Assembly: GCA_044374195.1 (NCBI GenBank)
Contig: JBILOY010000001.1
Location: 101,883 to 165,882, forward strand
Length of the DNA stretch: 64,000 nucleotides
Reading direction: 5' to 3'
Source of the DNA: Candidatus Nanopelagicales bacterium
Lineage (GTDB): Bacteria > Actinomycetota > Actinomycetes > S36-B12
Shown here: positions 1 to 19,200 of the stretch, in pieces
Layout of the letters: the number at the start of each line of letters is the position of its first letter
Numbering within the stretch: position 1 is the first letter of the stretch
Translations under genes and position numbers: made by a program
Notes under the pieces: model-generated
Databases searched by the model: none
The model's input: only the letters and a program-made list of their open reading frames with translations
Told to the model about the DNA's origin: nothing

Positions 1-936
1 GAAGCCTGCGGCGATAACCGTGACGCGAACCTCATCGCCCAGGGTGTCGTCGATGACGGCGCCGAAGATGATGTTGGCGTCGGGGTGAGCAGCGTCGCTG
101 ACCAGACGGGCAGCTTCGTTGATCTCGAACAGGCCGAGATCGCTGCCGCCGGAGATGGAGAGCAGAACTCCGCGGGCGCCGTCGATGCCGGCCTCGAGCA
201 GCGGGCTGGAGATGGCACGCTCGGCGGCCTCAACCGCACGATCCTCGCCACGAGCCGAGCCGATGCCCATGAGGGCGGAGCCGGCCGAGTGCATGACGCT
301 CTTGACGTCGGCGAAGTCGAGGTTGATCAGGCCCGGGGTGGTGATCAGGTCGGTGATGCCCGAGACGCCCTGCAGCAACACATGGTCGGCCTGGCGGAAT
401 GCGTCGATGACGGAGATGTTGCGATCCGACAGCGAGAGCAGGCGGTCGTTCGGGATGACGATCAAGGTGTCGACCTCGGCACGCAGCGCCTCGATGCCCT
501 CATCGGCCTGAGCGCCGCGACGGCGACCCTCGAAGCCGAACGGGCGGGTAACAACGCCGATGGTCAGTGCGCCGAGTGAGCGGGCGATGCGGGCCACGAC
601 GGGTGCGCCGCCGGTGCCGGTGCCGCCGCCTTCGCCTGCAGTCACGAAGACCATGTCAGAGCCGCGCAAGACCTCTTCGATCTCGCCCTCGTGATCCAAG
701 GCGGCCTTCTGGCCAACCTCGGGGTTCGCGCCGGCGCCAAGGCCCCGGGTGAGCTCACGGCCGATATCGAGCTTGACGTCGGCGTCGCTCATCAGCAGAG
801 CCTGAGCATCGGTGTTGATGGCGATGAACTCCACGCCCTTCAAACCGACCTCGATCATGCGGTTGACGGCGTTCACGCCGCCACCGCCGATGCCGACGAC
901 CTTGATCACTGCCAGGTAGTTCTGCGGAGCTGCCAC
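1..936 (-). CDS. ftsZ: Cell division protein FtsZ (3' end runs off the window)
   Basis: Manual minus-strand translation from GTG at 936: [28 protein letters not shown]...[13 protein letters not shown]...NLDFADV; RBS GAAAGGAA upstream. Not in the supplied ORF track. Confidence 0.98.
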
Positions 937-992
937 AGCCCGTTTCCTTTCGTTGGGCGTGACAGGGGAAGTCACGCTCGACCCTGGCCACA

Positions 993-1017
993 AACCCTCA
1001 ATCTCAACCTGAGGTTA
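993..1017. promoter_or_regulatory. Imperfect palindrome upstream of ftsZ, putative FtsR (MerR-type) binding site
   Basis: AACCCTCAATCTCAACCTGAGGTTA resembles the motif found upstream of actinobacterial ftsZ and bound by FtsR in Corynebacterium (from recall). Confidence 0.55.
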
Positions 1018-1150: not shown

Positions 1151-2077
1151 CTATGACTGGAAAACTACGTCTCGGTGGTACTCCAGGAAATCTCGCTGCG
1201 CTGGCCGGAAGTCACCAACGGAGGCTCTTGAATCGATACTCCACTGGGTCAGAATCTCGGGGTTGAGCTCCCTCGAGGCTCGAATCTCCCCCGCATCCGT
1301 GAAGGTAATGAACCCCCGATCAAAGAGGTGGTCCACGTGCGGGGACAACAACAGTCCGTTATTGCCGTCAAGCTTTTCGTCGTTGCTCGACACCGACCAA
1401 GGCTTGATGTGACTCGCCCTTAAGTGCTTCACATTCGTGACGCCGGTCACCCGACATGCCTTCTCAATCAGGCGAACGTTGGACTTGAAGATCCCTTGAC
1501 CTCGTCGGGATTTCACCAGCTGAATCCCCTCAAGATCCCCGTCGAGCAACTTTGCGCGAATCTCATATTCGATGGCCGAATCCTCGTCAGGGGTTGCGAG
1601 CGGCGCGAGCGCATGTTGCAACGAATAGAGGTTGGCATTCGACAGCATGACTAACAGCTGGCCCAATTCGAACGAGATCTCCGTTAAATAGACCCCCTGA
1701 TTTCCGTTCCCGTTGTTCTGCAGTGGTGCGTACCTGGCAGCAAGTAGAGGACGAATTTGCTCCATGAAGTCCTTGGGGCTGACCGGGCGTTCAATCGCAG
1801 AAAACTCAACATCTACGAGCCATCCGATCTCGGACCAATTACCGCCTGCCCCCTGGAAATCGGGCTTGGGCGCTGTGACCGCCGGGCGCTGGACGATGCC
1901 AATCGCCCTGATCACCGTGTCACAGAAGCTGAAGACCACGTCACCTGGTCGAAGCTCGGCCATGGTGTCGTAGAAATAGTGCTTCGCGCCGTCGCTGCGC
2001 GTTTTCGGAGACCAGAGGAACCCACCAGGCACCTCAAAATCGAAGGTCTGGTTTTGGTTGACCCACCAATACCGCAC
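1151..2077 (-). CDS. EVE-HNH modification-dependent (type IV) restriction endonuclease, VcaM4I-like
   Basis: 308 aa; N-terminal YWWVNQNQTF..GGFLWSPK..PGDVVFS EVE-like domain; C-terminal RRGQGIF..CRVTG..ASHIKPW..NGLLLSPHVDHLFDRG HNH domain. Confidence 0.88.
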   Translation of the reverse strand: MRYWWVNQNQTFDFEVPGGFLWSPKTRSDGAKHYFYDTMAELRPGDVVFSFCDTVIRAIGIVQRPAVTAPKPDFQGAGGNWSEIGWLVDVEFSAIERPVSPKDFMEQIRPLLAARYAPLQNNGNGNQGVYLTEISFELGQLLVMLSNANLYSLQHALAPLATPDEDSAIEYEIRAKLLDGDLEGIQLVKSRRGQGIFKSNVRLIEKACRVTGVTNVKHLRASHIKPWSVSSNDEKLDGNNGLLLSPHVDHLFDRGFITFTDAGEIRASRELNPEILTQWSIDSRASVGDFRPAQRDFLEYHRDVVFQS

Positions 2078-2221
2078 GTCACGAGCTTAGGCTTTTGTGT
2101 CACGAGTAGCCTCCATTCCAGAATGTGCTGGAGTTCAATTCCCAGCGCAGGTCGCTGACAACGCTCGCTTGATCGTCGTTTGAGCTCAAGCCACCGAGAA
2201 TTGGGTCTCAAACTCGGTCGA

Positions 2222-2249
2222 TTAGAGGTTCGGGTCCCTCCGGGCGCAC
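2222..2249 (+). pseudogene. Degenerate 3' fragment of a tRNA (Arg-like), possible att remnant
   Basis: TTAGAGGTTCGGGTCCCTCCGGGCGCAC resembles the T-arm plus acceptor 3' strand of tRNA-Arg(ACG); no matching 5' half upstream. Confidence 0.5.
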
Positions 2250-2486
2250 TTTCACGAGGGAATCGGGCCTTGCATTCGGCTCACAGAGTGCCACTGCACC
2301 AGTGTTCGACTGAAGCTTGTCGAGCGCGTCTAGGACCGTGGGATCCAATGCGCCTATGCGTAGACGCAGGATGTCACTGCCCTCCCCCAGGCTCTCGCAC
2401 GGGTTTTTGCTGCCCCGTGGGTGATCGAGGGCAAAAAGTTTGGACCAAGGGAGAGGGAAACCAGCCCCCGGTAAATCGGACCCTGG

Positions 2487-2515
2487 AGACTGGGGGGAAA
2501 GTCTCCCCCCAGTCT
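2487..2515 (-). terminator. Hairpin downstream of the MmeI-like gene
   Basis: AGACTGGGGGGA-aagtc-TCCCCCCAGTCT, 12-bp perfect stem. Confidence 0.6.
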
Positions 2516-2530
2516 GGCGAGCCGGACCTT

Positions 2531-5296
2531 CTATGCGCGGGTCCGCTTGACGGGCTTCATGGATTTGGCGAGGTCGAGCTGCCCATCGTTCACGAGAAGC
2601 GTGTACAGGTTGAACAGGGTTGCAAGGATTGTGGTGTCGTCGGCATCTGCGGGAAGGCCATAGGCGGCGAGCACGGCCGCATCGAGAGCCCTGTGTGCCG
2701 TGGTGAGGTTTGCCGGCATGGCCAGTGGGTCGTACAGGTCGGCGAGGGATGCGTTTGGGTGCGAGGCTCGGGCATCGAGGACTGCCTCGGCGGCGGTGGT
2801 TATTGCGCTCTGCTGCGCATCGTTGACTTCCTGCCAGGGGAAGTTGTTGAGGGTGACCTGAGCTGAGATCGAGTAGTCAGATTTAAGGCGACCGGAGATG
2901 GCGTCTACCCATGTGGTGAACAGCTTGGAAGAGACGACACCGAACTGGTCCAGGGTTGCTTCGGCCACCTGAATCTTGTTCGTTGGAATGTCATCCGGCG
3001 CGAGGTACATGGTGGGTATGTACCGGCGAGTTTGGCTGGACACTTCAGGGATGGCGAGGTACTGATGACTTGGCTTGCGGATCTCTTGGAACTCGGTTGG
3101 GCGATCTGCGTCACGTCGCGTGGACGCCTTAGAAGAGGCGAGGCGTACCTTGCGAACTTCCTCCGCACGCGCTCGAATGGTGGGAGAGTTTCGCACGTCT
3201 GAAAGTTCGGCACCATGCAGCCACAAGCACCAGCGAACGCGGCCCTGGATGAACTCTTGAGAGCCGTAGATCCTTTTGAGGTAGCGGGCAGCGATGGAGT
3301 CGTTCCTTCTGATCTCATCGGCTTCCTCCGGTGAGAGGTTCGAGAGGAAGCCTCCATCGGTTGGCTGGCATCCTTTGGTGACGAATGGCGCAAGATCAGT
3401 GATCGCACTTGTTACGGGCTTGATAAGCACGTCTGCGGCATCCAGCAAATAGGCGTTGATCGTGGCAGGACTGCTCTCCAGACCGGCCTCATCGAACAAC
3501 CGGAATTTGCTGATCGGCTTTCGGGCCATTCCGATAATGACGCAGTGGACAGCGGCTTGACCAGGAGCACTGTTCCTCCAAACGAACGTCCGCCAAGCAA
3601 AGTGATATCCCACTCCGAGTCTCGTTAGAGCACTCCAGAGCACTGGTGGCTGCTGTCCTTGGGTCACGCTGTTCGTAGCAACGAATGAAGCGGCACATCC
3701 ACTGTCCGAAACGTGTCGGGCGGCGATGAGTAGCCAGTTGGCAACGAAGTCGACAGTGCCGGAGCCTGAAGCGCAGTCCCAAACTTTCTGCTGGTCAGCG
3801 GCCTGCTCGCTGCTCTGCCACGACGGTCCAAGGAATGGCGGATTTCCCATGATGAACGTGTTCGAATCAAATTCACCAACAACAGCACTCCAATCCGCAG
3901 TGAGTGCGTTCGCTTGCGCAATCTTCGCATTGCTTGAAATCGGCAATCTGTCAGGCGCCTGACCGAACTCTTCAGCGAGGCGCAGGTTTGCTTGGTGATC
4001 AACAAGGAACAGTGCGACCTCGGCGATGCGGGCAGGCCACTCCTCGAGCTCGATGCCATAGAACTGACCTAGCGACACCTTCAACCCCAGCGTCGAATCC
4101 AGCGACAACTGCGACTGGCCTGTCAGTTCAGCCAGCCGCTTCATCACCGTCAGTTCGAAGTCACGCATCTCCCTGTAGGCGATGGCGAGGAAATTTCCGC
4201 AGCCACAGGCGGGGTCGAGGAACTTCATGTCCGACAGACCGTCACGTAATTTCTGCAACTTCTTTACATCATGGAATCCGGCATCGAACTGCGTCCGCAG
4301 GTCATCAAGGAACAGCGGCCCGATGACCTTCAGAATGTTTACCTCTGACGTGTAATGCTCCCCGAGCGCACGCCTGGCTTCCTTCGACTTCACCGCCTGG
4401 AACATGGAGCCGAAGATGGCTGGCACGATCGCCGCCCAATCCACCATGCAGCATTCGACCAACTGGGCCCTGATCGTGGAGTTGAACGAAGGAATGTCCA
4501 TCCGGTCAGCGAACAGGCCGCCGTTCACGTAAGGGAAGCGAAGAAGCGTCTCATCCAACGTCGGGGGCCTATTTGCGACCGGCCGGTCCAACGTTTGGAA
4601 AAGCAAGGAGAGTTGCGCGCCTAGATCCGAACCATCCACATGTGTTCGCGTCTCTACGAACTCCAAGAACAGATTGCGTTCCCACAAGCCCGTGTCATCC
4701 CCGAAGAACAGGAACAGCATTCGTGTTAGGAACACCGATGCCTCATGGTCGGTAAACCCGATCGTGGCAATCTCGTTGTAGAGCAGTCCCATCAACTCGG
4801 CGGCGTGAGCATCAACTTCCGACTCCTTCACGCCCATTCGGGCAGTGCCGTAGCCGGCGATGAACCCGAAGCGCTCGATCTCCTTGGCCAGGTCCTTTGT
4901 AGTGATCTCGACTGCGGGCTCACCTGATGTGAGGTCGAGAACGCGAATCCTCGCGAAGTCGCTGCACACGATTGCTGCTGGCAATTCCGCCTGCGGCAAT
5001 CCCTCCAGATAGTCAAGGCACTGCTGCTCGGCAGCCGCGAGATCCTTTCCTGCCGACTTGTGTTCTACGGCGATCACGCCAGGCCAGAACAAGTCGATTC
5101 GGCCTCGGCCACCTGTGGAAGCCCGCTCGGCGCGCTTCTCGAAGATTGCGACCCGTTTACGGTCGATTCCAAACATGCCCAAGAATTCATTCCAGAAGGA
5201 CTGAGAGCCAGCGTTCTCATCAGTTTCATCCGCCCATCGGGTGGAGAACTCCCGGGCGCGATCACGGATCTCATTCCATGACGGGGGCTTAGCCAC
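2531..5296 (-). CDS. MmeI-family type IIL restriction-modification enzyme (fused REase, m6A MTase and TRD)
   Basis: ~920 aa; PD-ExK (RIDLFWPGVIAVEHKS), FPYVNGGLF, GEHYTS, motif I FLDPACGCGNFL, motif IV GNPPF, C-terminal LADLYDPLAMP. Start GTG 5296 is a best guess (track start 5341). Confidence 0.92.
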   Translation of the reverse strand: MAKPPSWNEIRDRAREFSTRWADETDENAGSQSFWNEFLGMFGIDRKRVAIFEKRAERASTGGRGRIDLFWPGVIAVEHKSAGKDLAAAEQQCLDYLEGLPQAELPAAIVCSDFARIRVLDLTSGEPAVEITTKDLAKEIERFGFIAGYGTARMGVKESEVDAHAAELMGLLYNEIATIGFTDHEASVFLTRMLFLFFGDDTGLWERNLFLEFVETRTHVDGSDLGAQLSLLFQTLDRPVANRPPTLDETLLRFPYVNGGLFADRMDIPSFNSTIRAQLVECCMVDWAAIVPAIFGSMFQAVKSKEARRALGEHYTSEVNILKVIGPLFLDDLRTQFDAGFHDVKKLQKLRDGLSDMKFLDPACGCGNFLAIAYREMRDFELTVMKRLAELTGQSQLSLDSTLGLKVSLGQFYGIELEEWPARIAEVALFLVDHQANLRLAEEFGQAPDRLPISSNAKIAQANALTADWSAVVGEFDSNTFIMGNPPFLGPSWQSSEQAADQQKVWDCASGSGTVDFVANWLLIAARHVSDSGCAASFVATNSVTQGQQPPVLWSALTRLGVGYHFAWRTFVWRNSAPGQAAVHCVIIGMARKPISKFRLFDEAGLESSPATINAYLLDAADVLIKPVTSAITDLAPFVTKGCQPTDGGFLSNLSPEEADEIRRNDSIAARYLKRIYGSQEFIQGRVRWCLWLHGAELSDVRNSPTIRARAEEVRKVRLASSKASTRRDADRPTEFQEIRKPSHQYLAIPEVSSQTRRYIPTMYLAPDDIPTNKIQVAEATLDQFGVVSSKLFTTWVDAISGRLKSDYSISAQVTLNNFPWQEVNDAQQSAITTAAEAVLDARASHPNASLADLYDPLAMPANLTTAHRALDAAVLAAYGLPADADDTTILATLFNLYTLLVNDGQLDLAKSMKPVKRTRA

Positions 5297-5433
5297 AATT
5301 CCCCCCAAACCTGAGCACGATGTCATCCTAAGCGGATCCAAACCGATCCGAAGGAGAAGGAGGAGCCGGGCCGCTTCGGGGGTAACGGCCAGGCATTCGG
5401 GTGATACCCAGCTTTAGACCGAACAAACCCTGA

Positions 5434-5850
5434 ATCCTGGGCCGCCTGTGTGAGCTTTTCCTGGCAGCGAGGAACGGCAGCCCCCACAACAAGCAAAAGC
5501 CTGGAGATGAGACCCTTCCAATGTACGAACGGTTGACTCTCGAACGAGCAGTGGTTCCGATTACCCGCGTCTTGCGAATCATCGGATACGACAGTGCCAG
5601 CCTGGATCTGGATACATCTACAGATCTGCCAACGGCGAAGACGCGGAAGACCTACTCGGTTACCTAGAAACAGCTGACGGACGCTGGTGTCCTGCCAATC
5701 GGCCCACTCGTCTCCACCAACCCGAACTACGACTTCACGGCCAACCTTGTAGCTGACGGCACTATCGAGTTCGCTGGCGTCGTCTACCAGAACGCCCCGT
5801 CCTCAGCGGCTGCCGCTCGAGGGATCAACGCGATCAATGGGTGGGACTCG
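5434..5850 (+). pseudogene. Disrupted GIY-YIG/DUF4357 (RAMA-domain)-like gene remnant
   Basis: The frame from 5434 reads ILGRLCELF..HNKQKPGDETLPMYERLTLE..RVLRIIGYD..RKTYSVT*KQLTDAGVLPIG..ADGTIEFAGVVYQNAPSSAAAARGINAINGWD; in-frame TAG 5665-5667; N-terminus missing. Confidence 0.65.
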
Positions 5851-6207
5851 CGGGGGGGTCGCGACCACTGGTGGTACCCGAAGCCTTGCCACATATCGAG
5901 CCGAGTGGCTTCAAGCAATGTCCGGCTCATTGGGTGATCCCACATTGCCGGACTAGACCCTCGGGGCGGTTGATAGCGGCTGTCTTACCGGGAGCAGCCA
6001 ATTCGGCCGCAGTTCCGTACATCGTTCTGTTGGTGTGACTACTGATGGGCTCAATAAACTACAGCGGTGTCGTACGTGAGTACGGATACCCGTTGGGCCT
6101 CAATGGGTTTCGCGGTTTCGGCAATGTCAGACCCCCCTGTCACGGTGAAGGCGCTCGGGTGAGCTTCTCCCCCGGGTTGCCGGGTCGAATCACTAGGGGG
6201 CACACCG

Positions 6208-6393
6208 ATGGCTGAAACTGAGCCGAAATCCGAGCGCGTGAACTTACGCGCCACCAAGCATCAGGTAGCGGTGCTTCGTCAGGCCTCGATGCTGGCAGGG
6301 CTGACTCTCACGTCCTACGTCCTCACGACTGCTGTGTCACGGGCCGAGCTTGAGATCCAGTCACTTACGCCAACAAATCCGGATCAGCCATAA
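6208..6393 (+). CDS. DUF1778/TacA-like ribbon-helix-helix antitoxin (short, no adjacent GNAT toxin)
   Basis: KSERVNLRAT..LRQASMLAGLTLTSYVL..A..RAE pattern. Confidence 0.7.
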   Translation: MAETEPKSERVNLRATKHQVAVLRQASMLAGLTLTSYVLTTAVSRAELEIQSLTPTNPDQP

Positions 6394-6425
6394 GTTCATC
6401 GAAGGCCGACCGCAATCTGAATGCG

Positions 6426-6683
6426 GTGTCACTCATCGTCGGCATCCCGCTGGCGATCGTCCTGTTCATTTGGGCGGGTTGGATCACTGTCACCGCGTTC
6501 GTCGGCGGGCAGGCACCGTTCTTTTTCGTCGACTTTGAGGGCGTCAATCCCATACGCGGGCTGTTCTGGCTGATCATTGTTGATCCGCTTGTACTCACGG
6601 TGGCCTATTGGATCTTCATGCTCGTGATGCTGCCGATCGGCGCGTTGGCGGCGGGTATTGGCAAGGCAACTGATCGCAAGTAG
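6426..6683 (+). CDS. Small membrane protein, hypothetical
   Basis: 85 aa with two hydrophobic segments. Confidence 0.55.
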   Translation: MSLIVGIPLAIVLFIWAGWITVTAFVGGQAPFFFVDFEGVNPIRGLFWLIIVDPLVLTVAYWIFMLVMLPIGALAAGIGKATDRK

Positions 6684-6788
6684 TCGACGGCAGAGTCACT
6701 GGTACTCACGTCACAACTCACAATGTGTAGAGATGGAAGTGCTTCCTCACCTACGCTTCCGTCAACTAACCATTGCAACGGGGGAAAC

Positions 6789-7652
6789 ATGAAGACGCAC
6801 GTGCGATCAGCACTAACGACCATTGCGATCACCGGCGTGATTACTGCCCTCACAGCAGGAGCCATGGGAGTTGCGCAGGCAGACCCGGTGACGGAGCCGA
6901 GTGGGACTCCGTCGACTATTGCACCGACGAGTAGTGCACCGGCTGAGCCGACTCCGACGGCAACGCCAGCCCCCACCTACGCACCAGGCATGGCACCGAA
7001 CGAGCACGCGGGATGGGCGATCGTTGATCCTGCGACCGGTCAGCAGACCGGCGGAGTGATCGTGTGCACGCCAGAGGTGTGCGGAAGCGGCTGGTTCGCT
7101 GGCATGCGAGTCGTCCTTCAAACTCTTCAGGACCCCGTCGAAGCTTCACGCGCGGCCAACGGAGTCGGCAACGTTGCCGGCTACCAAGGCGGCACCTACG
7201 ACTTCGCAACCGGGCAGTGGACCTACCCCGGGCAGAGCGGGTCAACCTGGCAGATTCCACTCGCGTATCCGGGCGCGGACCTTGGCGGCACGGTTAACGT
7301 CCCTTCCTGCATTGCCAACTGCCCTACCCCCGAGCCCACTGCCTCGCCGAGTGGCGATCCGAGCGAGATGCCCTCTGAGTCAGCAAGCCCGGAACCTTCG
7401 TCCTCGACTGACCCAAGCGGGGTCGTGGCCGTCGTGGCACGAGCCAACGGCTACGCCGTCACGTTCGCACCGCTAAAGAAGCGCGCCGGCGTGACGACAG
7501 TTGTCGCACGCAAGAACGGCAAGGTTGTGCAAACCTGGACCCTTCGTGCGGGCTCGAAGAAGATTAGTTTCGTGCTGCCTCGAAGCTTCAAGGGCGTTCA
7601 GCTGACGGTTTCGCAGAAGGGCTCGGCGAACACGCGCGTCATGCTCGCTTGA
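6789..7652 (+). CDS. Secreted Pro/Ser/Thr-rich hypothetical protein
   Basis: Signal peptide MKTHVRS..AQA, RBS GGGGG, PST-rich linkers, two Cys pairs, basic C-terminal domain. Confidence 0.75.
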   Translation: MKTHVRSALTTIAITGVITALTAGAMGVAQADPVTEPSGTPSTIAPTSSAPAEPTPTATPAPTYAPGMAPNEHAGWAIVDPATGQQTGGVIVCTPEVCGSGWFAGMRVVLQTLQDPVEASRAANGVGNVAGYQGGTYDFATGQWTYPGQSGSTWQIPLAYPGADLGGTVNVPSCIANCPTPEPTASPSGDPSEMPSESASPEPSSSTDPSGVVAVVARANGYAVTFAPLKKRAGVTTVVARKNGKVVQTWTLRAGSKKISFVLPRSFKGVQLTVSQKGSANTRVMLA

Positions 7653-7710
7653 GAGAGGCCAGAAAAGTTCGATCTGGTCAAAAAGTGGGGTGTGGCGTTG
7701 GATTCTGCGC

Positions 7711-8472
7711 CTAGCCGAGGCTGGGGATTTCGCGCTGGCAGACGAAGCCACCCGTGCCGTTGTTCGGCCACTGAGACCAGCCCGGGCCGTATCCGCTCGG
7801 GCATGACGCCTGGCTCGAGGTACGCCCGATTTCCTGATGCCACGGCTGCGCCGTTGGCGATTGCTCTTGTGTCGGGACGGGAAGGTCCGGGTAGTAGGTA
7901 TAGATCCACCGATCGCAGACGTATCCGCCCTTGCCGTCGCCTGGCCAATGGGCCCAGCTAGGGGTCCAGCCGGAGCTGCACTCAGCGTCGGCAGATACTC
8001 GTGCAGTTGATTGCATCGATGTCGACATGTCAGGACTGGAAGCGCCGATGATGAAGTCGGTTGTTCCCCTGTGGAAGAAGTTGCCGGCACCAAACAACTC
8101 ACCAAAACGAATGCCCTCAGCTCGGTAACTGCCAGCGGGAAGCGGGACGGTATTCCCGTCGGGATCAAGCACAAGACTGCCAACGGTCACAACTCCCTGC
8201 GTGTCGCCGGCCGCGGGCTTGTACCAATACTTGATGAGACCTGGGGTATCTGGCAGGCACACAACACCTGCCTCACAGAAGGCCAAGATGTCGCCGGATT
8301 TCCCGAGAGCTACGCCGTACGGTGAGGTCCCGTTAAATGCCATGGCAGGCTCATCGAAAGTAATCGTTACGGCACCGGAGCCTGTAGCAGTCAATTCACA
8401 AGCGGTCAGGGCCACTGCGGCAAGGAGCAGGGCAGCGCAGGTTCCTGACTTCCCGAATCGGGGCATCCTCAT
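7711..8472 (-). CDS. Putative lipoprotein with two C-terminal CxxG[WY]xP[SG]W[AS][QH]WPxxGxGG[YF]VCxR modules
   Basis: Lipobox LTAC; two homologous ~40-aa repeats. Confidence 0.75.
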   Translation of the reverse strand: MRMPRFGKSGTCAALLLAAVALTACELTATGSGAVTITFDEPAMAFNGTSPYGVALGKSGDILAFCEAGVVCLPDTPGLIKYWYKPAAGDTQGVVTVGSLVLDPDGNTVPLPAGSYRAEGIRFGELFGAGNFFHRGTTDFIIGASSPDMSTSMQSTARVSADAECSSGWTPSWAHWPGDGKGGYVCDRWIYTYYPDLPVPTQEQSPTAQPWHQEIGRTSSQASCPSGYGPGWSQWPNNGTGGFVCQREIPSLG

Positions 8473-8674
8473 TCGCGATCAACTCTCTGTAGCAATGCCC
8501 AGGACGCCGTTCATAAAAGAAAGGACACCCCTGTCTCGACAGGCACGTCCGATGGATTTCAAGGCCGGGTTTTAGGACATCCCCCCGCGTTCCTTCTCGC
8601 GCATGTCCCTTACTCAGGTTACAGTCCAGACTCAGGTTCCGCATGTTGTGAACCCCCGAGGTTCTGGAGGAACC

Positions 8675-9778
8675 ATGGCACCGCGGTCGACCAGGGTTCT
8701 CGGGATTGCACTGGCGCCAGTGCTTTTGGCGGGCGGCCTGGTCGCTGCCGCGCCTGCGTTCGCCGCCACCCAAGTGTCGTTCACCACCCCTGGTCTTTCT
8801 TCGTGGACAGTTCCCGATGATGTGACTCAGGTGACGATCACCGCGATCGGTGGCGCGGGAGGTGCTGGCCTGCGCAGTCTTGGCGGAGCTGGCTGCACGG
8901 TGACGAACGTTTACTCAGTGACGCCAGGAGATGTCTTCCGCATTTTCGTCGGTGGCGGAGGTCTGGGCGGCTCCGGAACTGTCAGCGGCGGAGGTGGCGG
9001 GTCAACCACCATCAACCTTCAGCAGATCTCCGGGATCGTGGCCGGTGGCGGTGGCGGAGGCGGTGGCTATGACAACGTCTCTCCTTCGATCGGCCCGAAC
9101 GATGGCGGTGATGGTTGTGGTTCCTTCACCTCCGGTGGCAACGGGTTGAGCCCGAATGGTCAAGGTGGAAGCAATGCTGTCGGTGGTGGCGGTGGTGGTG
9201 GTGACCCCACCACAAACGGCGGCAGCGGCCTCGCGGGCGCAGGCGGGATCGGCTTCGGAAATCCGGGCAGCGGCGGTATGGGAGACGTCTGCTCATTTGG
9301 CGATGGCGGCACAACGATTTCCTTCGGCGGCGGTGGTGGCGGCGGCGGTTACGGTGGCGGCGGAGCGGGTTCACAACAGTCCCTCGGCGGACTGGGCACC
9401 GTCTACGGAGGCGGCGGAGGCGGCGGCAGTACTGGCCCGTCGGGCGCCACGTTTTCAATTGACACAGCGCGCACCGCGAATTCACTTACTGGCAGGAATG
9501 GATCGGTACTGATCAGTTTCGGCCCGCCTGACACGGCTCCTTCATGGTTCCAGTCCTACGCGCGCGGTGCATCGGTCTCCTGCCTCGCTGGCTGGAATCC
9601 GAGTTGGGCTCAATGGCCCGGTAACGGCACGGGTGGATACGTGTGTAACCGGGAGATCTACATGACCCCGACAGGTACCTGGTCTTCGCGCTCACAACTA
9701 CTCGGTTCGGTAGCGACGCAATCAACACCCGCGCCTGCCCATGGCCCGACTCGACCGGTGATCAGCTACCGCTGCTAG
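8675..9778 (+). CDS. Secreted glycine-rich protein with one C-terminal Cys/Trp module
   Basis: RBS GGAGG; signal peptide ..APAFA; WTVPDDVTQVTITAIGGAGG..VTPG..VGGGG glycine-rich domain; C-terminal CLAGWNPSWAQWPGNGTGGYVCNRE. Confidence 0.85.
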   Translation: MAPRSTRVLGIALAPVLLAGGLVAAAPAFAATQVSFTTPGLSSWTVPDDVTQVTITAIGGAGGAGLRSLGGAGCTVTNVYSVTPGDVFRIFVGGGGLGGSGTVSGGGGGSTTINLQQISGIVAGGGGGGGGYDNVSPSIGPNDGGDGCGSFTSGGNGLSPNGQGGSNAVGGGGGGGDPTTNGGSGLAGAGGIGFGNPGSGGMGDVCSFGDGGTTISFGGGGGGGGYGGGGAGSQQSLGGLGTVYGGGGGGGSTGPSGATFSIDTARTANSLTGRNGSVLISFGPPDTAPSWFQSYARGASVSCLAGWNPSWAQWPGNGTGGYVCNREIYMTPTGTWSSRSQLLGSVATQSTPAPAHGPTRPVISYRC

Positions 9779-9802
9779 GTGGCGGCGGGGCTACGGTGAG
9801 CA

Positions 9803-9841
9803 GAATTACTGCTTGACTGTAATTCAGCAGTAGCCTAGCCT
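9803..9841 (+). promoter_or_regulatory. Promoter and operator of the TA pair (probably leaderless)
   Basis: TTGACT-17 nt-TAGCCT, 6 nt before ATG 9848; inverted repeat GAATTAC..GTAATTC overlaps the -35. Confidence 0.6.
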
Positions 9842-9847
9842 TTTGTC

Positions 9848-10165
9848 ATGAGCAGTGCCCAGCCCTTCCACGGATTCGTGAGCGTCCAGTCTCGGGGCCT
9901 CGTGGCGCTACCCGCCTCCATTCGCAAGCGTTACCGCCTTGACGAGCCGGGAGCCCAGGTCGAGATCACGGAGCGCGCCGACGGCGTACTCGAATTGCGA
10001 CCCGCAGTGGCTGTGCCGGCTGGCGAGGCGTGGTTCTGGGAGAAGCGCTGGCAGGACGGCGAGCGCGAGGTCGATGCACTCGTTTCCGCGAAAGCCATCA
10101 CCGTGACCGAGGGTGTGGATGAGTTCTTGCAGTCCCTACCGACATCGGGCGACACTGCCGGATGA
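9848..10165 (+). CDS. AbrB/MazE/SpoVT-family antitoxin
   Basis: VQSRGLVALPASIRKRY..LELRP..AWFW..WQDGEREVD; ATGA overlap with the next gene. Confidence 0.85.
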   Translation: MSSAQPFHGFVSVQSRGLVALPASIRKRYRLDEPGAQVEITERADGVLELRPAVAVPAGEAWFWEKRWQDGEREVDALVSAKAITVTEGVDEFLQSLPTSGDTAG

Positions 10166-10473
10166 AATTCGAGCGCACCTCCCGCTTCGATTCCGACTTC
10201 GCTGCCTTACCGCGTGAGCATCAGGAGCAGTTTCGTTCGCTCATTCCCGACTTTCACACTGCTACCGAGGCCTTCGTTGCCTCGGGCGGCAAGGGCGGGT
10301 GGCCGAAGCGACTTCGAGTGCACCCGATGACGAGCGCACCCGGCATTTGGGAACTCACCTGGTCGTTCGCATCCCCCGATGGCCGGGCGACGTTCGAGTT
10401 CGTTAATCGCGAAGGCGAAGTACGCGTGCTGTGGCGCCGTATCGGTGATCACTCGATCTATCGGAGACCGTGA
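10162..10473 (+). CDS. RelE/ParE-superfamily toxin (putative)
   Basis: MKFERTSRFDSDF..GIWELTW..GRATF..WRRIGDHSIY; coupled to the antitoxin. Confidence 0.75.
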   Translation: MKFERTSRFDSDFAALPREHQEQFRSLIPDFHTATEAFVASGGKGGWPKRLRVHPMTSAPGIWELTWSFASPDGRATFEFVNREGEVRVLWRRIGDHSIYRRP

Positions 10474-10516
10474 CTCTTTTCGTTTCGCCGAGCAACCAGC
10501 AAGACCGACGTCGCCT

Positions 10517-11266
10517 CTAGATAGAGGGGTCGCTCGAGTCTGCCGTGGGCGGTTCTTCCGTCGCGGCCTCGCCAGGGGCGTCCTTATTCTTTCCCTTGAC
10601 CAGCAAGACGATGGCGACGACGAAGACGGCCACGACTGCGATCGCAAGGATCACGAGGATCAGCAGCTTCGTGGCGGACCCACTGGGTTCGGATGCCGCG
10701 ACCACCGTGACATTGAAGTTTTCACTCAAGGATCCTGCGACCGTGACGGTGTTCTCGTTGACCTTCGTGGCTCCATTGCCGGTGATACTCGAGATCGGGC
10801 CCGGGAATGTGGCCGTGAAGGAGAACTGGCCCAGGCTCATGCCCTCCAGCATCGCGGCTTCGTCACCCGTGCCGCCCTGGCTTTCGCTGACCACGTTCAA
10901 GGTGAGTTCGTCGCCCGTCTTCGTCAGCGACCAAGCGTCATCGAGCTCGGAGGCCTGAACATTCGCAACCGTGCACGTGACGATGAAGTTGGTGGCGTCC
11001 TCTGACTCCACGCAGGACTGGGCCACCTCGTTGTCGACGCCCAGATCCATATCACCCGACGTTATGGCTTCCCCGAGCTGCTCCTTGGAAGTCACACCGA
11101 GGGGGGCCATTGCCTCCTTGGAGATCGCCGCCGTGAAGGCGCCGGACAAGGTCGCATCGGAATTGACCGTGAGCTTGTAGGTCACGTCGATACAGGCGGT
11201 CAGCGTCAAGATCGCCATGGTTGCCACGGCAACAAGCCCGGCTGTTCGTCGAGTACGGGTGTTCAT
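10517..11266 (-). CDS. LppM-like (DUF3153) lipoprotein with a C-terminal TM anchor
   Basis: Lipobox LTAC, LTVNSDATLSG, TFPGPI..NG, C-terminal hydrophobic helix. Confidence 0.75.
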   Translation of the reverse strand: MNTRTRRTAGLVAVATMAILTLTACIDVTYKLTVNSDATLSGAFTAAISKEAMAPLGVTSKEQLGEAITSGDMDLGVDNEVAQSCVESEDATNFIVTCTVANVQASELDDAWSLTKTGDELTLNVVSESQGGTGDEAAMLEGMSLGQFSFTATFPGPISSITGNGATKVNENTVTVAGSLSENFNVTVVAASEPSGSATKLLILVILAIAVVAVFVVAIVLLVKGKNKDAPGEAATEEPPTADSSDPSI

Positions 11267-11429
11267 GGTTCCCCCTCAGGTTTTCGCCAACTTTAGTGGG
11301 CTGCTTGGGCTTCGGAGGCTCCAGAAACCACGTGTCTGGCGTGAAGGGCGCAGTTCACGGGCTACCGAAGAATCTGCCTCAACTTGTGTTGACCCCACCA
11401 GGTGCCGATGGCGAGAACGAGGAAGAAGA

Positions 11430-11636
11430 TCATCCTCTACTCCCTTCGCCCGGGGTGCTTACATGGGCGCTGCCCCAGGTGTGATTGCAGCAGATACATA
11501 AGAAGGTGATGGCTGCGCCCTTGCGCAGCTCGAGGCCCTGGGCACCGCATGCCGGGCATAGGGGCGCACGGGTCTCGTTGTGATGCGCAACTGCCGGGCG
11601 CTTCCGTTCGTCCTGATTTCTTCGTTCGACTCTCAT
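11430..11636 (-). CDS. Possible small zinc-ribbon protein
   Basis: CPACG..CICCNHTW in a 68-aa ORF occupying an otherwise empty gap. Confidence 0.3.
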   Translation of the reverse strand: MRVERRNQDERKRPAVAHHNETRAPLCPACGAQGLELRKGAAITFLCICCNHTWGSAHVSTPGEGSRG

Positions 11637-11700
11637 GGGACCAGAGTGACGGGAGGGTCTGACATTGCTCCGCGCGTCGCCCTCGGTCTAATGCGACACT

Positions 11701-12120
11701 GTGGTCGTGTTTAAGACAATCGGTCGCCTTGCTCTCGGTGCGTTCTTGATCTTTGCCTCGATCGGGCACTTCATCTCAGCCGACGAGTTTCTCGCCCAGG
11801 TGCCGCCGTGGATGCCAGCCCCAGAGCTCGTCGTTCTGGTCTCCGGTGGGGTCGAACTCGCACTTGGCTGCGCGCTCATCTTCTTTCCAAGGAAATGGCG
11901 GCCGATTGTTGGCTGTGTGACGGCAGCGTTCTTCGTCATCATCTTCCCGGGAAACCTCTGGCAGTACTTCGAGGCCAGAGATGCTTTTGGACTCGATTCA
12001 GATTCCGCTCGACTCGTGCGGTTGCTCTTCCAGCCCGTCCTTGTTCTGTGGGCTCTTTGGGCAACCGGGGCCTTTGCCGCGTGGCGGAAGAAATCAGCAG
12101 GTTCGGCCTCATCTGTCTAG
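11701..12120 (+). CDS. DoxX-family membrane protein
   Basis: GHF..VPPWMP..SGGVELALG..IFPGN..RLLFQPVL. Confidence 0.85.
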   Translation: MVVFKTIGRLALGAFLIFASIGHFISADEFLAQVPPWMPAPELVVLVSGGVELALGCALIFFPRKWRPIVGCVTAAFFVIIFPGNLWQYFEARDAFGLDSDSARLVRLLFQPVLVLWALWATGAFAAWRKKSAGSASSV

Positions 12121-12653
12121 GCCTGGCTTAGCCCCCTAGATTCGAGAAACTCAGTGATTGTGGCCCTCACCTCGGGCCGAATCACGCTCTCGCCCCACAC
12201 CCGATCGCAGATCTCCCAGACCTGGCTGACTGCTCTCAGCTCGAGAATCTCGCAGAGCACTGCGACGTCTTGCAGATCTCGCGGGCCTCGCCCGGCTCGC
12301 GCCTTCATTGCGAGCAGATGCTCGGCCGACGCAACCTCAACACTGAGCCCCGCAACGCTGAGCATCTCCCAGCTGCGGGAATCGGCAAGTCTGGGAAGCA
12401 GCGGGGCGACTCGCGAATTGAGCCAGTCGGGAGGCAAGTCACCGCGATCTTTTGCCATCTCGTCGACGACCTCGTCGATAACACCTGATGGCGTGATGAG
12501 CGCATCGATGTCACGAGTGACCGCGCTTCTGTCATAGCCGAGGAGCATGGCGGCTCCCCCGACGATGTAGAGCTCGACTTCGAGGCCACGGGCATCAAGG
12601 CGCTCACCGAGTTCGGTGAGCAGCGCGACGATCTCATCTTTCGTCGTGAACAT
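12117..12653 (-). CDS. DUF6036/AbiEii-like nucleotidyltransferase (putative TA toxin)
   Basis: YIVGGAAM..TRDIDA..LPPDWLN..LLAMK..RDLQD; ATG at 12653 directly follows the HTH gene stop. Confidence 0.8.
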   Translation of the reverse strand: MFTTKDEIVALLTELGERLDARGLEVELYIVGGAAMLLGYDRSAVTRDIDALITPSGVIDEVVDEMAKDRGDLPPDWLNSRVAPLLPRLADSRSWEMLSVAGLSVEVASAEHLLAMKARAGRGPRDLQDVAVLCEILELRAVSQVWEICDRVWGESVIRPEVRATITEFLESRGLSQA

Positions 12654-12654
12654 C

Positions 12655-13290
12655 TCAGACCGACTCAAGAGCGCGACGGTCGAGGTAGATGCCACGCGCT
12701 CGCAGGCTAGGAATACCGTTGGCGAAGGCCTGGGCCTTGAGGCTCTTGTCACCCTTCTTTAGGCCGACCCACCAGAGTTCGTCCAGATAAAGATGATGAG
12801 CATGAGTCCACGCGGGGGCGCGCTCGAGTTTGGCTGTGCGTGCCCAGTGAACGGCCATGCCGGCGAGCAGGGCGTCAGTGCGCTGATCGCCGGTCGACTG
12901 GGGCTGGGCGAGGAAGAGGCGAACATCGGCCTGGATGGAATGCTCGTCGCGCTTCGGGTTGGTTGCCTGCAAGGCGGCGTTCACTGAGTCATTCATTCCG
13001 ATCACGTAACGCATCAGCCAGAGGTCGAGCTCGGGGCCTTCGTGCTTGGTTGCCTGAAGGCTCTCTTTCAGGGTTTTCGCGTGCGAGGCGCAGGTGCCCA
13101 GCCACGTGGCGGCGTGAACGGTGCTCTCATGAAGACGCAGAAGCTCAGCCATCCGCTCTTCGACGACACTGCCGGGAGTGAGGGAGCCGGCTTCGTAGGC
13201 GCTGATATTCGCCTGCTGGGTGCCCAGGAGGAAGGCGACGTGCGACTGGGACATACCCGCGCTTGCGCGGTATTCCCTCAACTCGTGCAC
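12655..13290 (-). CDS. XRE-family HTH protein, putative antitoxin partner
   Basis: LREYRASAGMSQ..GTQQANISAYEAG; C-terminal DALLAG..APAW..SLRARGIYLDRRAL. Confidence 0.8.
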   Translation of the reverse strand: MHELREYRASAGMSQSHVAFLLGTQQANISAYEAGSLTPGSVVEERMAELLRLHESTVHAATWLGTCASHAKTLKESLQATKHEGPELDLWLMRYVIGMNDSVNAALQATNPKRDEHSIQADVRLFLAQPQSTGDQRTDALLAGMAVHWARTAKLERAPAWTHAHHLYLDELWWVGLKKGDKSLKAQAFANGIPSLRARGIYLDRRALESV

Positions 13291-13292
13291 GG

Positions 13293-13307
13293 AGGTATTA
13301 TATACCT
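13293..13307 (-). promoter_or_regulatory. Palindromic operator overlapping a TATAAT -10 (leaderless promoter)
   Basis: AGGTAT-TAT-ATACCT; the minus strand reads TATAAT-6 nt-GTG(13290). Confidence 0.6.
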
Positions 13308-13340
13308 ATGCTTATTGCTTATATTGCTCGCTTTACGCGC

Positions 13341-13586
13341 GAGTCATGGTTCTGGAAGCGACCGTGGAGACGGGGCGAACGCGAAGTTGACGCTCATGTG
13401 AAAGCTGGAGAGATCCGAGTGACTGACGGTGTCCGGGAATTCCTCATCTCCTTGCCGGTCACAATTACAGACATCGATCTCGAAAAGGAAGAAGTCTTCG
13501 ACTCCAAGGGCGTTCGCGTCGATAACGCGTACATCGAACGTGTAATGCAAGAAGTCGAGGCCGAACTCGAGAGGCGAGCCGACTAG
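13341..13586 (+). pseudogene. Truncated or chimeric antitoxin fragment (C-terminal half paralogous to 9848..10165)
   Basis: SWFWKRPWRRGEREVDAHVKAGEIRVTDGVREFLISLP versus AWFWEKRWQDGEREVDALVSAKAITVTEGVDEFLQSLP; the AbrB DNA-binding N-terminus is absent. Confidence 0.6.
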
Positions 13587-14260
13587 CGGTCGTTCCAGAT
13601 CCTTCGGAAATACACCCGATCGTGTTCGGCATCTGCTCGAAAGTCACCGAGATACTCTGACTGAGAGATGGCGTGAAAACACCCGAGTCCCTCGAGCGTG
13701 CAGAGATTGCCACCTCTTTCTTGCGCTCGACGCGCCAGGTCGTCGTCACCCCACCACCAGCGAAGACCAGGGTCAATGGCGAAGGGCTGATTGCGCCAGA
13801 AATCTGCTCGAAGCATGAACATCCAGCCGGTTCGCTCGGTCCACTCGACGGGAATGGCTTTGACACCAATCAGTTCGCCGCCATCGGCTGCCGGATCGAT
13901 GAAGGCGAGATCGAAGCCGGCCATTTCAGCGCGCATTCTTTGAAGAGTTCCCGGATGTAATCGGATGTCGTTGTTGAGAATTGCAAGGTGAGCTCCGGAT
14001 ATCTCGCTCGCTCGTGACACCATCTCGTTCCACATTCCGTGGAGACGTTCGCGCGGTCGGGTAACGACTGTGAGTCGCACATCCGAGGCGGCGAGACTCG
14101 CCGCCCATCTCGCCGTGTCGTCAGTCGAACCGTTGTCGAAAAGCCATACCTGATCGACCTCGTCACCATTGAGCAGCGACTCAACGAGGGGCTGGGTCCA
14201 CTCCAGCGCATTGCGCACGGGGATTCCTGCGATCAACTGGCCATTCGCAGGGGGTGTCAT
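13583..14260 (-). CDS. Glycosyltransferase family 2
   Basis: IPVRN..FDNGSTDDT..WNE..ILNNDI..WWGDDDL; ATG at 14260 next to the upstream stop. Confidence 0.85.
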   Translation of the reverse strand: MTPPANGQLIAGIPVRNALEWTQPLVESLLNGDEVDQVWLFDNGSTDDTARWAASLAASDVRLTVVTRPRERLHGMWNEMVSRASEISGAHLAILNNDIRLHPGTLQRMRAEMAGFDLAFIDPAADGGELIGVKAIPVEWTERTGWMFMLRADFWRNQPFAIDPGLRWWWGDDDLARRAQERGGNLCTLEGLGCFHAISQSEYLGDFRADAEHDRVYFRRIWNDR

Positions 14261-14261
14261 G

Positions 14262-15341
14262 TCAGGAGTATTGGGCGAGATTCGCGGAGACGGTGGCGTG
14301 AACATCGGCGGGAATGTCGGTTCGCTCGAGCAGTTCTCTCCAGATGAATTGGGCTCGCTCGCGATCACCACACCACCAGGAGTTGGCGGCAAGCTCGAGT
14401 TGAACGCCCCACGCGTACATCCAGGGTTCGACGAAGAGACGATCCCCTGCCGGCAGCTCGATGGATGCGGCGCGCTCTGCCCACATGAGAGCTGCGCCGT
14501 GGGCTCCGTTCTCGCGATAGCCGCGGGCGAGGTGAACGAGCGGCTCAACTCGATGGGAGCGGAACTCCCAGGCGGTGATGTACATCTGCGCAGCAGCAGG
14601 CCAATCCCCCGCTGCTTCAAGCAGCATCCCGCACTTGTACATCGACCAGAAGATCTCCTCCTCCCAGCCGCCAAGCTCGATGCGCCGGCGATAGGCCGCT
14701 AGTGCACCCGGAACATCTCCGAGACCTTCGCGAGTCTGAGCGAGATAGAAGAACGTGCGTGCGTTATCAGGGTCCGCGTAGGCATCGCTCTCGAGAAGAC
14801 CGAGATCACGTTGCAGCTTGGTATCCCTGTTGCCTCCATCACCGATGTGGGTGATGACGATGTCGTCACACGGGGTAGCGGTGGCGCCAATCGCGGTAAA
14901 GGACAGGTACTCGTGCGTTCGTCCAATGTAGGAACATTCGAGATCGCTAGAGACGAGGTACGGCATCCGATACTGCAGGCCCGACTCAACCATGATGTCG
15001 TAGGCAGCCTCAGTTAGATCCTCCAGAGGATCAGCAGAGGTGATTCTTACCGTCATGTCGGCATCGAGCAAGAGCAGGTAGTCCGCAGTGGGCCGTGCCA
15101 ATTCGAGCAGCTCATTCCTATTGGTGGAAAAGTCGCGCCACGGCCTTGTGTGAACGTTGCCCGGAATGCCCGCGAGGGACTCCTTCACGAGTTCAACAGT
15201 GTTATCTGTCGACCCGGTATCGACGATCGTCCAGGTGTCGATCAGGCCGCGCACACTGCCGAGGCAGCGCTCGATGATGTGGGCTTCGTTGCGCACGATC
15301 ATGGCTAGGCCGATACGTGGGCGCGGTGAGTTGAGAGTCAT
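14262..15341 (-). CDS. GT2 glycosyltransferase with TPR domain
   Basis: MIVRNEAHIIERCL..VDTGSTDNT..DFSTNRN..LLDAD..THEY..FYLAQT, followed by TPR-like helices. Confidence 0.9.
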   Translation of the reverse strand: MTLNSPRPRIGLAMIVRNEAHIIERCLGSVRGLIDTWTIVDTGSTDNTVELVKESLAGIPGNVHTRPWRDFSTNRNELLELARPTADYLLLLDADMTVRITSADPLEDLTEAAYDIMVESGLQYRMPYLVSSDLECSYIGRTHEYLSFTAIGATATPCDDIVITHIGDGGNRDTKLQRDLGLLESDAYADPDNARTFFYLAQTREGLGDVPGALAAYRRRIELGGWEEEIFWSMYKCGMLLEAAGDWPAAAQMYITAWEFRSHRVEPLVHLARGYRENGAHGAALMWAERAASIELPAGDRLFVEPWMYAWGVQLELAANSWWCGDRERAQFIWRELLERTDIPADVHATVSANLAQYS

Positions 15342-15359
15342 GCTCGACCAGGTGCTGGA

Positions 15360-16040
15360 CTATCCGGCAGCGCCGGTCGGACCCATCGGGCCGGTATCGC
15401 CCTGGAAACCTGTGGGGCCCATCTCGCCGGTGTAACCGGTCGGACCGGTGTAACCGGTGTAGCCGGTCGGACCAGTGGGCCCAATCCCGCCGGGTCCAGT
15501 AGCGCCTTCCATCCCCGTGACACCCTGTGGGCCGGTGTAACCAGTCGGACCGGTGGCCCCGGCAATTCCATCTTGGCCAGCCGGACCGGCGGGACCAGTA
15601 AGACCGGTGTTGCTGCCCGTCGGGCCGGTGGCACCCGCGGTGCCGTTGGCGCCATCAGAGCCAGCGGGGCCGGACGAACCATCGGAGCCCTTCTGCCCTG
15701 CTTGACCCGCGGGGCCAGTAGCACCGGAGGTGCCATTCGCGCCCGTCGCGCCATTGGCGCCGTTGCGGCCGTTGGTTCCATCAGAGCCGGAGCTACCTGT
15801 TGCGCCTGCAGCACCACTTTGACCAGGGCTACCCGCGGGGCCAGCCGGACCGGCCGGACCCGAGCCGCCAGCAGCACCGGGTTGGCCGTTGGCGCCGGCG
15901 GCGCCGGAGGCGCCATCTGGAGCAATGATCTTGGTGACCACTGCACCACCGATCACGCCACCGATGATTGCGAGGCATGAGTTCACGAGGATGCTGCGAC
16001 GGGCAATGAAGTTCGAGAATCCACCGAGGGGCGAGCTCAA
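15360..16040 (-). CDS. Collagen-like protein with an N-terminal hydrophobic anchor
   Basis: ~60 Gly-X-Y triplets with two interruptions, Thr-rich GPT/GYT tail; RBS AAGGAG before TTG. Confidence 0.9.
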
Positions 16041-16107
16041 CGTTCTCTCCTTCTCGGTAGTCCGTACGCGCAGTTAGCTGAGGCTAGTGGGTCTTGGGAC
16101 CCTCGAG

Positions 16108-18150: not shown

Positions 18151-18245
18151 GCCATGCTCCGCATCGCCGGTTTAGAGATCACTGCGCCATTATCCGAGTA
18201 AGCGTCGACAGCGCCCGAGCGCAGGGCTGAATCGCTATCGATGCG

Positions 18246-18836: not shown

Positions 18837-18916
18837 ACCCCCAGATTAGGTGCCAATTCGTTCACAAACACGAACGGACTCTTGACCAAGATCGAATCTT
18901 GAGAATAATCCTGATC

Positions 18917-19180
18917 ATGGCAATTGAGTCCCTCACCAAGGTCAAATCCCAGTTGTCCGCCCTCGTCGATTCAGTGCACAGTACCCATGAGCGGATCATC
19001 ATCACGCGTAACGGAAAGCCTGCCGCCGTCTTGATATCCCCTGAAGATCTCGAGTCGCTCGAGGAGACCATCGCGGTTCTCTCCGATCCCGATGCCATGA
19101 CCGAAATCAAGGAAGCCAGATCAGCAATTGCACGAGGCGAGACATCTGCCGCAGACGACGTTCGGATTCGCCACCTATAA
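18917..19180 (+). CDS. Phd/YefM-family antitoxin (no toxin downstream)
   Basis: KSQLSALVDSV..IIITRNGKPAAVLIS.EDLESLEET..LSDP; upstream inverted repeat CAAGAT-cga-ATCTTG. Confidence 0.9.
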   Translation: MAIESLTKVKSQLSALVDSVHSTHERIIITRNGKPAAVLISPEDLESLEETIAVLSDPDAMTEIKEARSAIARGETSAADDVRIRHL

Positions 19181-19200
19181 GAGTTTGTACCCCTCGGTGG

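Follow-up and report, generated by a model that had tools for sequence, protein, structure and literature searches.

An unnamed domain family of exported proteins in one uncultured freshwater actinobacterial family, most likely a small sugar- or envelope-binding tag

LysM, SLH, LGFP repeats, GW modules, WxL, ChW and choline-binding repeats are short autonomous modules that occur singly or in tandem and mostly at a protein terminus. These non-covalent wall-binding modules are joined by linkers to unrelated exported passengers, and they are often lineage-specific and expanded. A window of 64,000 nucleotides from a Candidatus Nanopelagicales genome (contig JBILOY010000001.1, positions 101,883 to 165,882; window coordinates count from its first nucleotide) contains two divergent genes, P0001 and P0002, whose exported products share a short module with conserved Cys and Trp residues. 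The module has the same modular architecture as the wall-binding modules of Gram-positive bacteria, here without a sequence or fold match. What sets it apart from these is a single pair of conserved Cys residues and an acidic to neutral character. Judging from profile searches, it forms a large unnamed domain family that sits on exported proteins only and is confined to a single, uncultured family of freshwater actinobacteria; the domain family is large and clean and is covered by neither Pfam nor NCBIfam. It appears to be a new domain family that does a known kind of job, and going by its sequence it is most likely a small sugar- or envelope-binding tag. With a confidence somewhat short of even, the module is read here as a self-folding, disulfide-stapled binding module that would hold exported proteins on a lineage-specific envelope polymer, as its sequences and a structure model suggest.

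The two genes and their module copies are located as follows, with scores from a hidden Markov model (HMM).

7711..8472, minus strand: P0001 gene, encoding a lipoprotein of 253 amino acids with a leader and lipobox, a predicted beta-sandwich N-terminal domain with a conserved Cys pair, and two short-form modules

8398..8472, minus strand: P0001 signal peptide with lipobox L-T-A-C (amino acids 1-25, Cys25), read from the sequence; the Cys is kept in full-length homologues

7876..8037, minus strand (core nucleotides 7903-8016): P0001 module copy 1, short form, from HMM (97.8 bits) and alignments; followed by the linker YTYYPDLPVPTQ

7714..7860, minus strand (core nucleotides 7726-7842): P0001 module copy 2, short form, from HMM (84.8 bits) and alignments; the stop codon comes 4 residues on

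8603..9778, plus strand: P0002 gene, encoding a Gly-rich exported protein of 391 amino acids; translation likely begins with the Met encoded at nucleotide 8675

8675..8764, plus strand: putative Sec-type signal peptide of P0002 (MAPRSTRVLG...APAFA), assigned by reading the sequence

9524..9697, plus strand (core nucleotides 9545-9658): P0002 module copy, short form plus last hairpin, from HMM (93.2 bits) and alignments; a tail of 28 residues comes after it

The initial annotation of this DNA had described three copies of one motif, two in a lipoprotein and one in a Gly-rich protein. In the translated window all three were found at the coordinates it gave, namely at amino acids 165-190 and 224-249 of P0001 and at amino acids 327-352 of P0002; nucleotides 7903-8016 and 7726-7842 of P0001 represent the motif copies including the Q..R prefix. 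The N-terminal parts of the two proteins, which had been called unrelated, are indeed dissimilar (best BLASTP E 0.38). The proposed C-terminal placement is correct for P0001, in which the last module ends just before the stop codon, but not for P0002, in which about 28 residues follow. Similarly, the proposed unit of about 40 residues is a real repeat, but in the window it is present in a short form, and the complete domain extends over about 68 residues. Homologues of P0001 have kept the lipobox Cys, C66 and C72 and both modules throughout an alignment of 26 sequences. P0002 gave a sole weak match against Pfam, to Gly_rich_2 (E 0.15, below the cut-off). Within its Gly-rich stretch (window 9061-9330), many contig joints in other lake metagenomes skip 118-263 nucleotides, so that length variants of this stretch exist between populations.

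The motif was counted in a six-frame translation of the window's genome comprising 3.89 million residues, with reversed sequences and five residue shuffles as controls. The exact motif of the initial annotation occurred three times, and the reversed sequences did not contain it. With a looser core, W..[WY].{5}GG..C.R, there were 13 occurrences in the forward sequences, 0 in the reversed ones and 0 in each of the 5 shuffles. An HMM of the three window copies was run on 46,383 six-frame open reading frames (ORFs) of the 2.41-Mb genome (E≤0.002). It detected 13 copies in 12 ORFs, so that the module is present well beyond the two genes from which the model was built. A signal peptide or lipobox is evident in 10 of these 12 ORFs, and the other two are fragments. 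These module frames without a signal peptide, L001 (G000:C35:37148-37564) and L005 (G000:C35:22566-22718), are identical in their last 26 residues and, from their sequences, look like remnants or a partial duplication. In the alignment the full domain comprises approx. 68 residues with the consensus P.P..QQFG.P..G.C........LNW.G....GGW..SWAQW.NGG.GG.VC.R.L.Y......W.V. In the short form a loop of some 17 residues is missing, and frequently the last hairpin too. W43, G49 and C53 are invariant, while Q8, C18, S39, W40, N45, G47, G50 and R55 are conserved at a level of at least 90%.

A profile of the 12 window-genome copies was searched against 1,835,955,588 cluster representatives (clusters at 50% identity). 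At E≤1e-3 it matched 1375 representatives, 675 of which also passed E≤1e-10. The source names of the matches were only 'hypothetical protein', 'YVTN family beta-propeller protein' and 'RCC1 family protein'. Neither in the two window proteins (E≤1) nor in nine others from the same genome (E≤0.1) is the module covered by a family of Pfam or NCBIfam. Among the best 150 of the 1375 representatives, 148 are without any Pfam family at 1e-5, and the remaining two match in their passenger domains only. When 73 isolated copies were compared with Pfam at E≤10, just four unrelated families were hit, once each, and neither a dockerin nor a carbohydrate-binding module (CBM) was among them. Profiles of the known wall-binding families LysM, SLH, LGFP, ChW, GW/SH3, CW_binding, WxL and PG_binding gave no significant match. 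Nothing significant was found among PDB sequences either, where the best match of the module profile was the chromo barrel of MRG701 (E 0.36 over 25 profile positions). A chromo-like barrel was rejected, as this match is not significant and no SH3- or chromo-like chain came up in the fold searches. The ESM Atlas contained no usable match for the L006 protein, a further module protein of the window's genome. The claim that the module belongs to no named family thus withstood comparison with Pfam, NCBIfam and PDB sequences. In the full-text literature on surface proteins of actinobacteria and Nanopelagicales and on C-terminal domains, neither a description of the module nor the motif SWAQW was found. 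The available passages of a publication about the order's small-genome, low-GC members (PMC12817590) make no mention of such a domain.

The carriers were characterised by their leaders, their passengers and the position of the module. By a crude hydrophobicity test, 108 out of 136 Met-started proteins from the best 150 of the 1375 representatives have a signal-peptide-like start. In these 150 proteins the module reaches the very C-terminus in 133 cases, stops 1 residue short of it in 11 and stops 2 residues short in 6; 145 of them have one copy and five have two. Together with 111 proteins of a second database they form a set of 261 proteins. Here, the module ends at most 3 residues before the C-terminus in 252 proteins, 4-30 residues before it in 2 and more than 30 in 7, and its median isoelectric point is 4.9. 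BLAST sorted 238 N-terminal regions of this set into 79 clusters. Relative to these regions, the 16 residues preceding the module are enriched in Pro (11.9% compared to 5.1%) and Ser (19.3% compared to 12.2%). In the window's genome, clear matches were obtained for passengers with a YVTN beta-propeller, He_PIG Ig-like domains, and Big_3_5 with pentapeptide repeats. Matches below the threshold comprised a choice-of-anchor-R-like domain, a glycosylhydrolase-like repeat protein and Lcl_C, and several passengers remained without any match. Two passengers of this genome have sub-threshold matches to NCBIfam 'choice-of-anchor' domains, which owe their name to being paired with differing anchors at the C-terminus. 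The precomputed Pfam accessions are without exception those of passenger families, namely lactonase/YVTN propellers, Lcl_C (PF07603), PF00415, PF09479 and PF07581, the last three of which we take to be RCC1, Flg_new and Glug. No enzymes are among the listed passengers. The initial annotation had named many signal-peptide proteins with a C-terminal module in one lineage as what would support its reading, and both the 10 exported ORFs of the genome and the 79 N-terminal clusters agree with this.

With its place at the extreme C-terminus of many unrelated exported proteins, the module resembles the C-terminal domain of type IX secretion systems (T9SS), PEP-CTERM and LPXTG signals. It could accordingly be a C-terminal sorting or secretion signal of the T9SS kind that is read, and perhaps removed, by dedicated machinery, and the 252 of 261 proteins with a practically terminal module are what such a signal would produce. 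However, a cleaved sorting signal is unlikely because internal, N-terminal and solitary copies exist. The P0001 family carries tandem modules, and one copy is therefore internal. In a third subtype, seen at loci of a named species collection, the module stands directly behind the signal peptide, with another 80-350 residues after it, Lcl_C among them; such post-signal-peptide copies account for the 7 of 261 proteins with more than 30 residues after the module. In contrast to C-terminal sorting domains, the module has no transmembrane tail and no LPXTG-like motif, and it occurs in tandem, N-terminal and stand-alone forms. Moreover, the carriers already have Sec or lipoprotein leaders, and no conserved machinery gene adjoins the module genes in the window's genome. 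Altogether, a sorting signal is regarded as very improbable.

The structure of the module was predicted with AlphaFold2 from a long-form copy, that of L004, using an alignment of 73 rows. The model reached a predicted local distance difference test score (pLDDT) of 94.1 and a predicted TM score of 0.78. Its predicted elements are a short helix (residues 18-21) and four strands (6-11, 37-41, 50-60 and 65-68). A Foldseek search of this model against the PDB gave a best E of 1.7. VIA-align against 48,161 chains gave a best Z of 2.5 with a root-mean-square deviation of 3.1 over 54 residues, and when Foldseek's 1000 best were re-examined, the best Z was 2.2. The best E among the viral models of BFVD was 1.9. 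Structure prediction combined with Foldseek, which had been proposed as a check on the module, thus yielded a confident model with no solved or viral structural neighbour. A domain of 69 residues that finds no match is no proof of a new fold, and the model indicates no known wall- or carbohydrate-binding fold. In a model of full-length P0001, based on an alignment of 26 rows, the N-terminal domain (amino acids 30-144) was predicted as a beta-sandwich with a pLDDT of about 90. For the full-length model Foldseek retrieved only weak antibody Fab rows with an immunoglobulin sandwich (best E 2.2e-3, TM 0.21), so that the N-terminal domain is just a generic beta-sandwich. A homodimer prediction for two module copies scored 0.02 against a mark of 0.42, a result that has no bearing either way on dimerisation. 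The conserved positions suggest a disulfide between C18 and C53 and a putative ligand site made of Trp, Gln, Asn and Arg.

The module is confined to one lineage, as the initial annotation had anticipated. Among 30 relatives of the window's genome, it is carried by 15 out of 18 genomes of the same family and by none of the 12 from other families; the highest load is 30 module matches, reached in two genomes. In a sample of 300 genomes of the order (E≤1e-5), it was present in 56 of 88 genomes of the family and in 0 of 212 from nine sister families. It was not found in any of 400 genomes sampled across the phylum. Within the family the distribution is patchy at the level of genera, with 5/5 genomes in g1, 16/17 in g7, 6/15 in g5, 1/11 in g9 and 0/5 in g23. 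The named species collection contains 63 module loci with 75 copies, all from metagenome-assembled genomes. For most of these loci the title is Candidatus Nanopelagicales, Actinomycetota, Actinomycetes/Actinomycetales or 'uncultured actinobacterium'; a few have labels that are regarded as doubtful ('uncultured Bifidobacteriaceae' and, in one case, 'Rubrivirga'). The module family exists, is exported and modular, is restricted to a lineage and lacks a match to any known family or fold. Confinement to the two window genes, mainly cytoplasmic carriers or a match to a known domain had been named as outcomes that would speak against the module, and none of these occurred.

From these properties we infer a disulfide, an exposed binding face, a ligand and a retention role. 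The module would be an independently folding domain of about 45-70 residues with a three- to four-stranded antiparallel sheet and a short helix, and one disulfide between two near-invariant Cys residues would probably staple it. Its carrier would leave the cell by Sec or lipoprotein export. Outside, the module may act as a small lectin-like unit that would use its conserved Trp, Gln, Asn and Arg residues to attach non-covalently to a polymer belonging to the cell's own envelope. This polymer might be a glycopolymer of the wall or some peptidoglycan feature that is specific to the actinobacterial family, and binding would retain the diverse passengers at the cell surface via the Ser/Pro-rich linker. 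The export of the carriers, the linker, the terminal but movable position, the tandem and solitary forms, the unrelated and non-enzymatic passengers, the conserved aromatic and polar residues and the restriction to one family all fit an autonomous binding domain that would serve mainly to tether exported passengers to some structure at the cell surface.

The same residues would also suit a domain that faces outwards. CBM1, CBM5/12 and CBM10 are tiny aromatic beta-sheet modules, some of which are stabilised by disulfides, and the module resembles them as a tiny beta-sheet domain with conserved aromatics. It might accordingly be a lectin or adhesin for an external glycan or surface, such as algal or cyanobacterial polysaccharide, chitin, particles or other cells. 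It is small, beta-rich and near-neutral with conserved Trp, Gln, Asn and Arg; the membrane-anchored P0001 displays two modules at its distal end, and secreted stand-alone modules exist. Nevertheless, modules for common glycans are usually spread over taxa that share a habitat, whereas this one was missing from all 212 sister-family and all 400 phylum genomes. Neither a glycoside hydrolase nor any other enzyme is among the listed passengers, and the search of the 73 copies brought up no CBM family of Pfam. The module differs from the small CBMs in having no HMM match, in its passengers, which are not glycoside hydrolases, and in its range of one bacterial family. An environmental glycan is hence considered unlikely as the target, although it is the alternative to be taken most seriously. 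A target on the cell's own envelope is favoured over it because of the family restriction and a phage-borne copy. The lineage restriction is better accounted for by a ligand specific to that lineage than by one common in the environment.

Apart from its occurrence on passengers, the module also exists on its own. Seven out of 10 small module ORFs fetched from genomes of the family (L089-L094 and L098) encode just a signal peptide with the module directly behind it. Some of these stand-alone proteins are conserved across species, with L089, L090 and L093 in one group and L091 and L092 in another. The window's genome has a stand-alone module protein as well, L002 (G000:C56:167226-167540). The phage-borne copy, the only viral match obtained, lies on an IMG/VR contig of 21.5 kb (L085, G706) with genes for a primase, an HNH protein, the small and large terminase and a portal protein. 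Here, a frame of 87 codons (L085:3370-3633) combines a signal-peptide-like start with a short-form module. When used as a query against IMG/VR, this ORF only re-found its own contig. A tblastn search against 50,697 GenBank phage records gave no module match, and 3 out of 5 scans of IMG/VR were empty; since these scans required an exact pattern match, this absence is weak evidence. The phage frame suggests that the module alone acts at the envelope. The stand-alone proteins are not explained by a pure anchor role. The module is more than a passive C-terminal tag, because copies exist alone behind a signal peptide, between a signal peptide and another domain, and on a phage contig.

The genes of P0001 and P0002 are located in approx. 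18 kb of accessory DNA (window 1151-19200) between ftsZ and ftsQ. The neighbouring features that were assigned coordinates are the following.

1-993, minus strand: ftsZ

2531-5341: MmeI-family restriction-modification gene

6723-7652, plus strand: exported protein next to the pair, Ser/Thr/Pro-rich and without a module

19201-20106, minus strand: ftsQ

For the exported protein at 6723-7652, a weak C-terminal match of the ricin-B-like type (E 0.032, below the cut-off) was all that was obtained. The accessory stretch also contains genes for an HNH nuclease, a TacA-like antitoxin, an LppM-like lipoprotein, two GT2 glycosyltransferases, a TPR protein and a pair of an HTH protein and a DUF6036 nucleotidyltransferase, and it encodes three exported proteins in all. 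Its part from 1335 to 6003 is almost uncovered by contigs of four other lake metagenome runs, while the rest is mostly covered. Two further module genes, L006 and L003, are inserted in the division cluster upstream of the window (G000:C56:90000-101882). The order there is ileS, an AbiEii toxin, an unknown gene, L006, yggT, sepF, an ylmE-like gene, an RHH gene, L003 with its beta-propeller, a Cu-oxidase_4 (PgeF-like) gene and ftsZ. Beyond the window, the module genes of this genome are situated either in this division cluster or amid housekeeping genes.

These surroundings and the scan for large exported proteins bear on the idea that the partner is a protein. A dockerin is a duplicated calcium-binding helix pair. 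Like the dockerins of cellulosomal proteins, the module is a C-terminal unit of about 60-70 amino acids that is found across different passengers in one organism. Passengers could thus be plugged into a surface scaffold or an S-layer-like lattice by protein-protein docking, or they could self-assemble. The conserved module on unrelated passengers, with up to 30 matches per genome as in dockerin-bearing proteins, is in line with docking, and restriction to a family suits a protein partner as well as a glycan. On the other hand, the module is beta-rich, unlike a dockerin, it matches no dockerin profile of Pfam, and a crude scan brought up no cohesin-like partner. In approx. 75 kb examined in the window's genome, no partner, processing or receptor gene recurs beside the module genes. 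Among 148 large ORFs with a signal-peptide-like start, the crude scan revealed no obvious repeat-bearing scaffold and no candidate with repeated receptor domains; its self-repeat test gave 0 hits for every ORF, even for the two-repeat He_PIG protein, and was probably non-working. Docking to a protein is rated as rather unlikely, and somewhat below an external glycan.

Other anchoring systems are sparse in the window's genome. In this assembly, which is 98% complete, a sortase (PF04203) was not found, and one LysM, no SLH and no LGFP stand against 13 module copies. Sortase is present in 13 out of 18 other genomes of the family, and one genome has neither sortase nor module. The C-termini of the modules end in a beta-strand (...W.V) with no hydrophobic tail and no LPXTG-like motif. 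A sortase substrate was dismissed given that an LPXTG-like signal is missing and that the window's genome has no sortase.

Several observations weigh against retention on an envelope polymer. The module was not detected in 32 of the 88 sampled genomes of the family. A role as a simple replacement for sortase had to be rejected in view of the 13 out of 18 other family genomes that have one. The module is acidic to neutral, which differs from many modules that bind anionic wall polymers, and the fold searches show no resemblance to a known wall-binding fold. P0001 is already lipid-anchored and has no need of a retention tag, while the stand-alone copies have no passenger to retain. Finally, the two short-form, three-stranded modules of P0001 reach a pLDDT of only 60-76 in the full-length model.

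Going further, the module could represent an unseen fold and serve as the common address tag of a family-specific surface display. A dedicated envelope receptor, either a glycopolymer or a scaffold protein, would then recognise it, and the free signal-peptide-plus-module proteins, including that of the phage, would compete for this receptor. This extension is a long shot. If it were true, the cell surface might be remodelled or masked by free module proteins, for instance as a means of phage superinfection exclusion or receptor masking.

The carriers are abundant lake actinobacteria that are represented by metagenome-assembled genomes only, and their cell surface is almost uncharacterised. In these organisms, one unnamed domain marks a substantial share of the exported proteins, with up to 30 matches in a genome of approx. 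2.3 Mb. Knowing the ligand of the module would reveal how their surface coat, the interface with phages and grazers, is constructed. A labelled module may also provide a handle for staining or capturing cells of this lineage.

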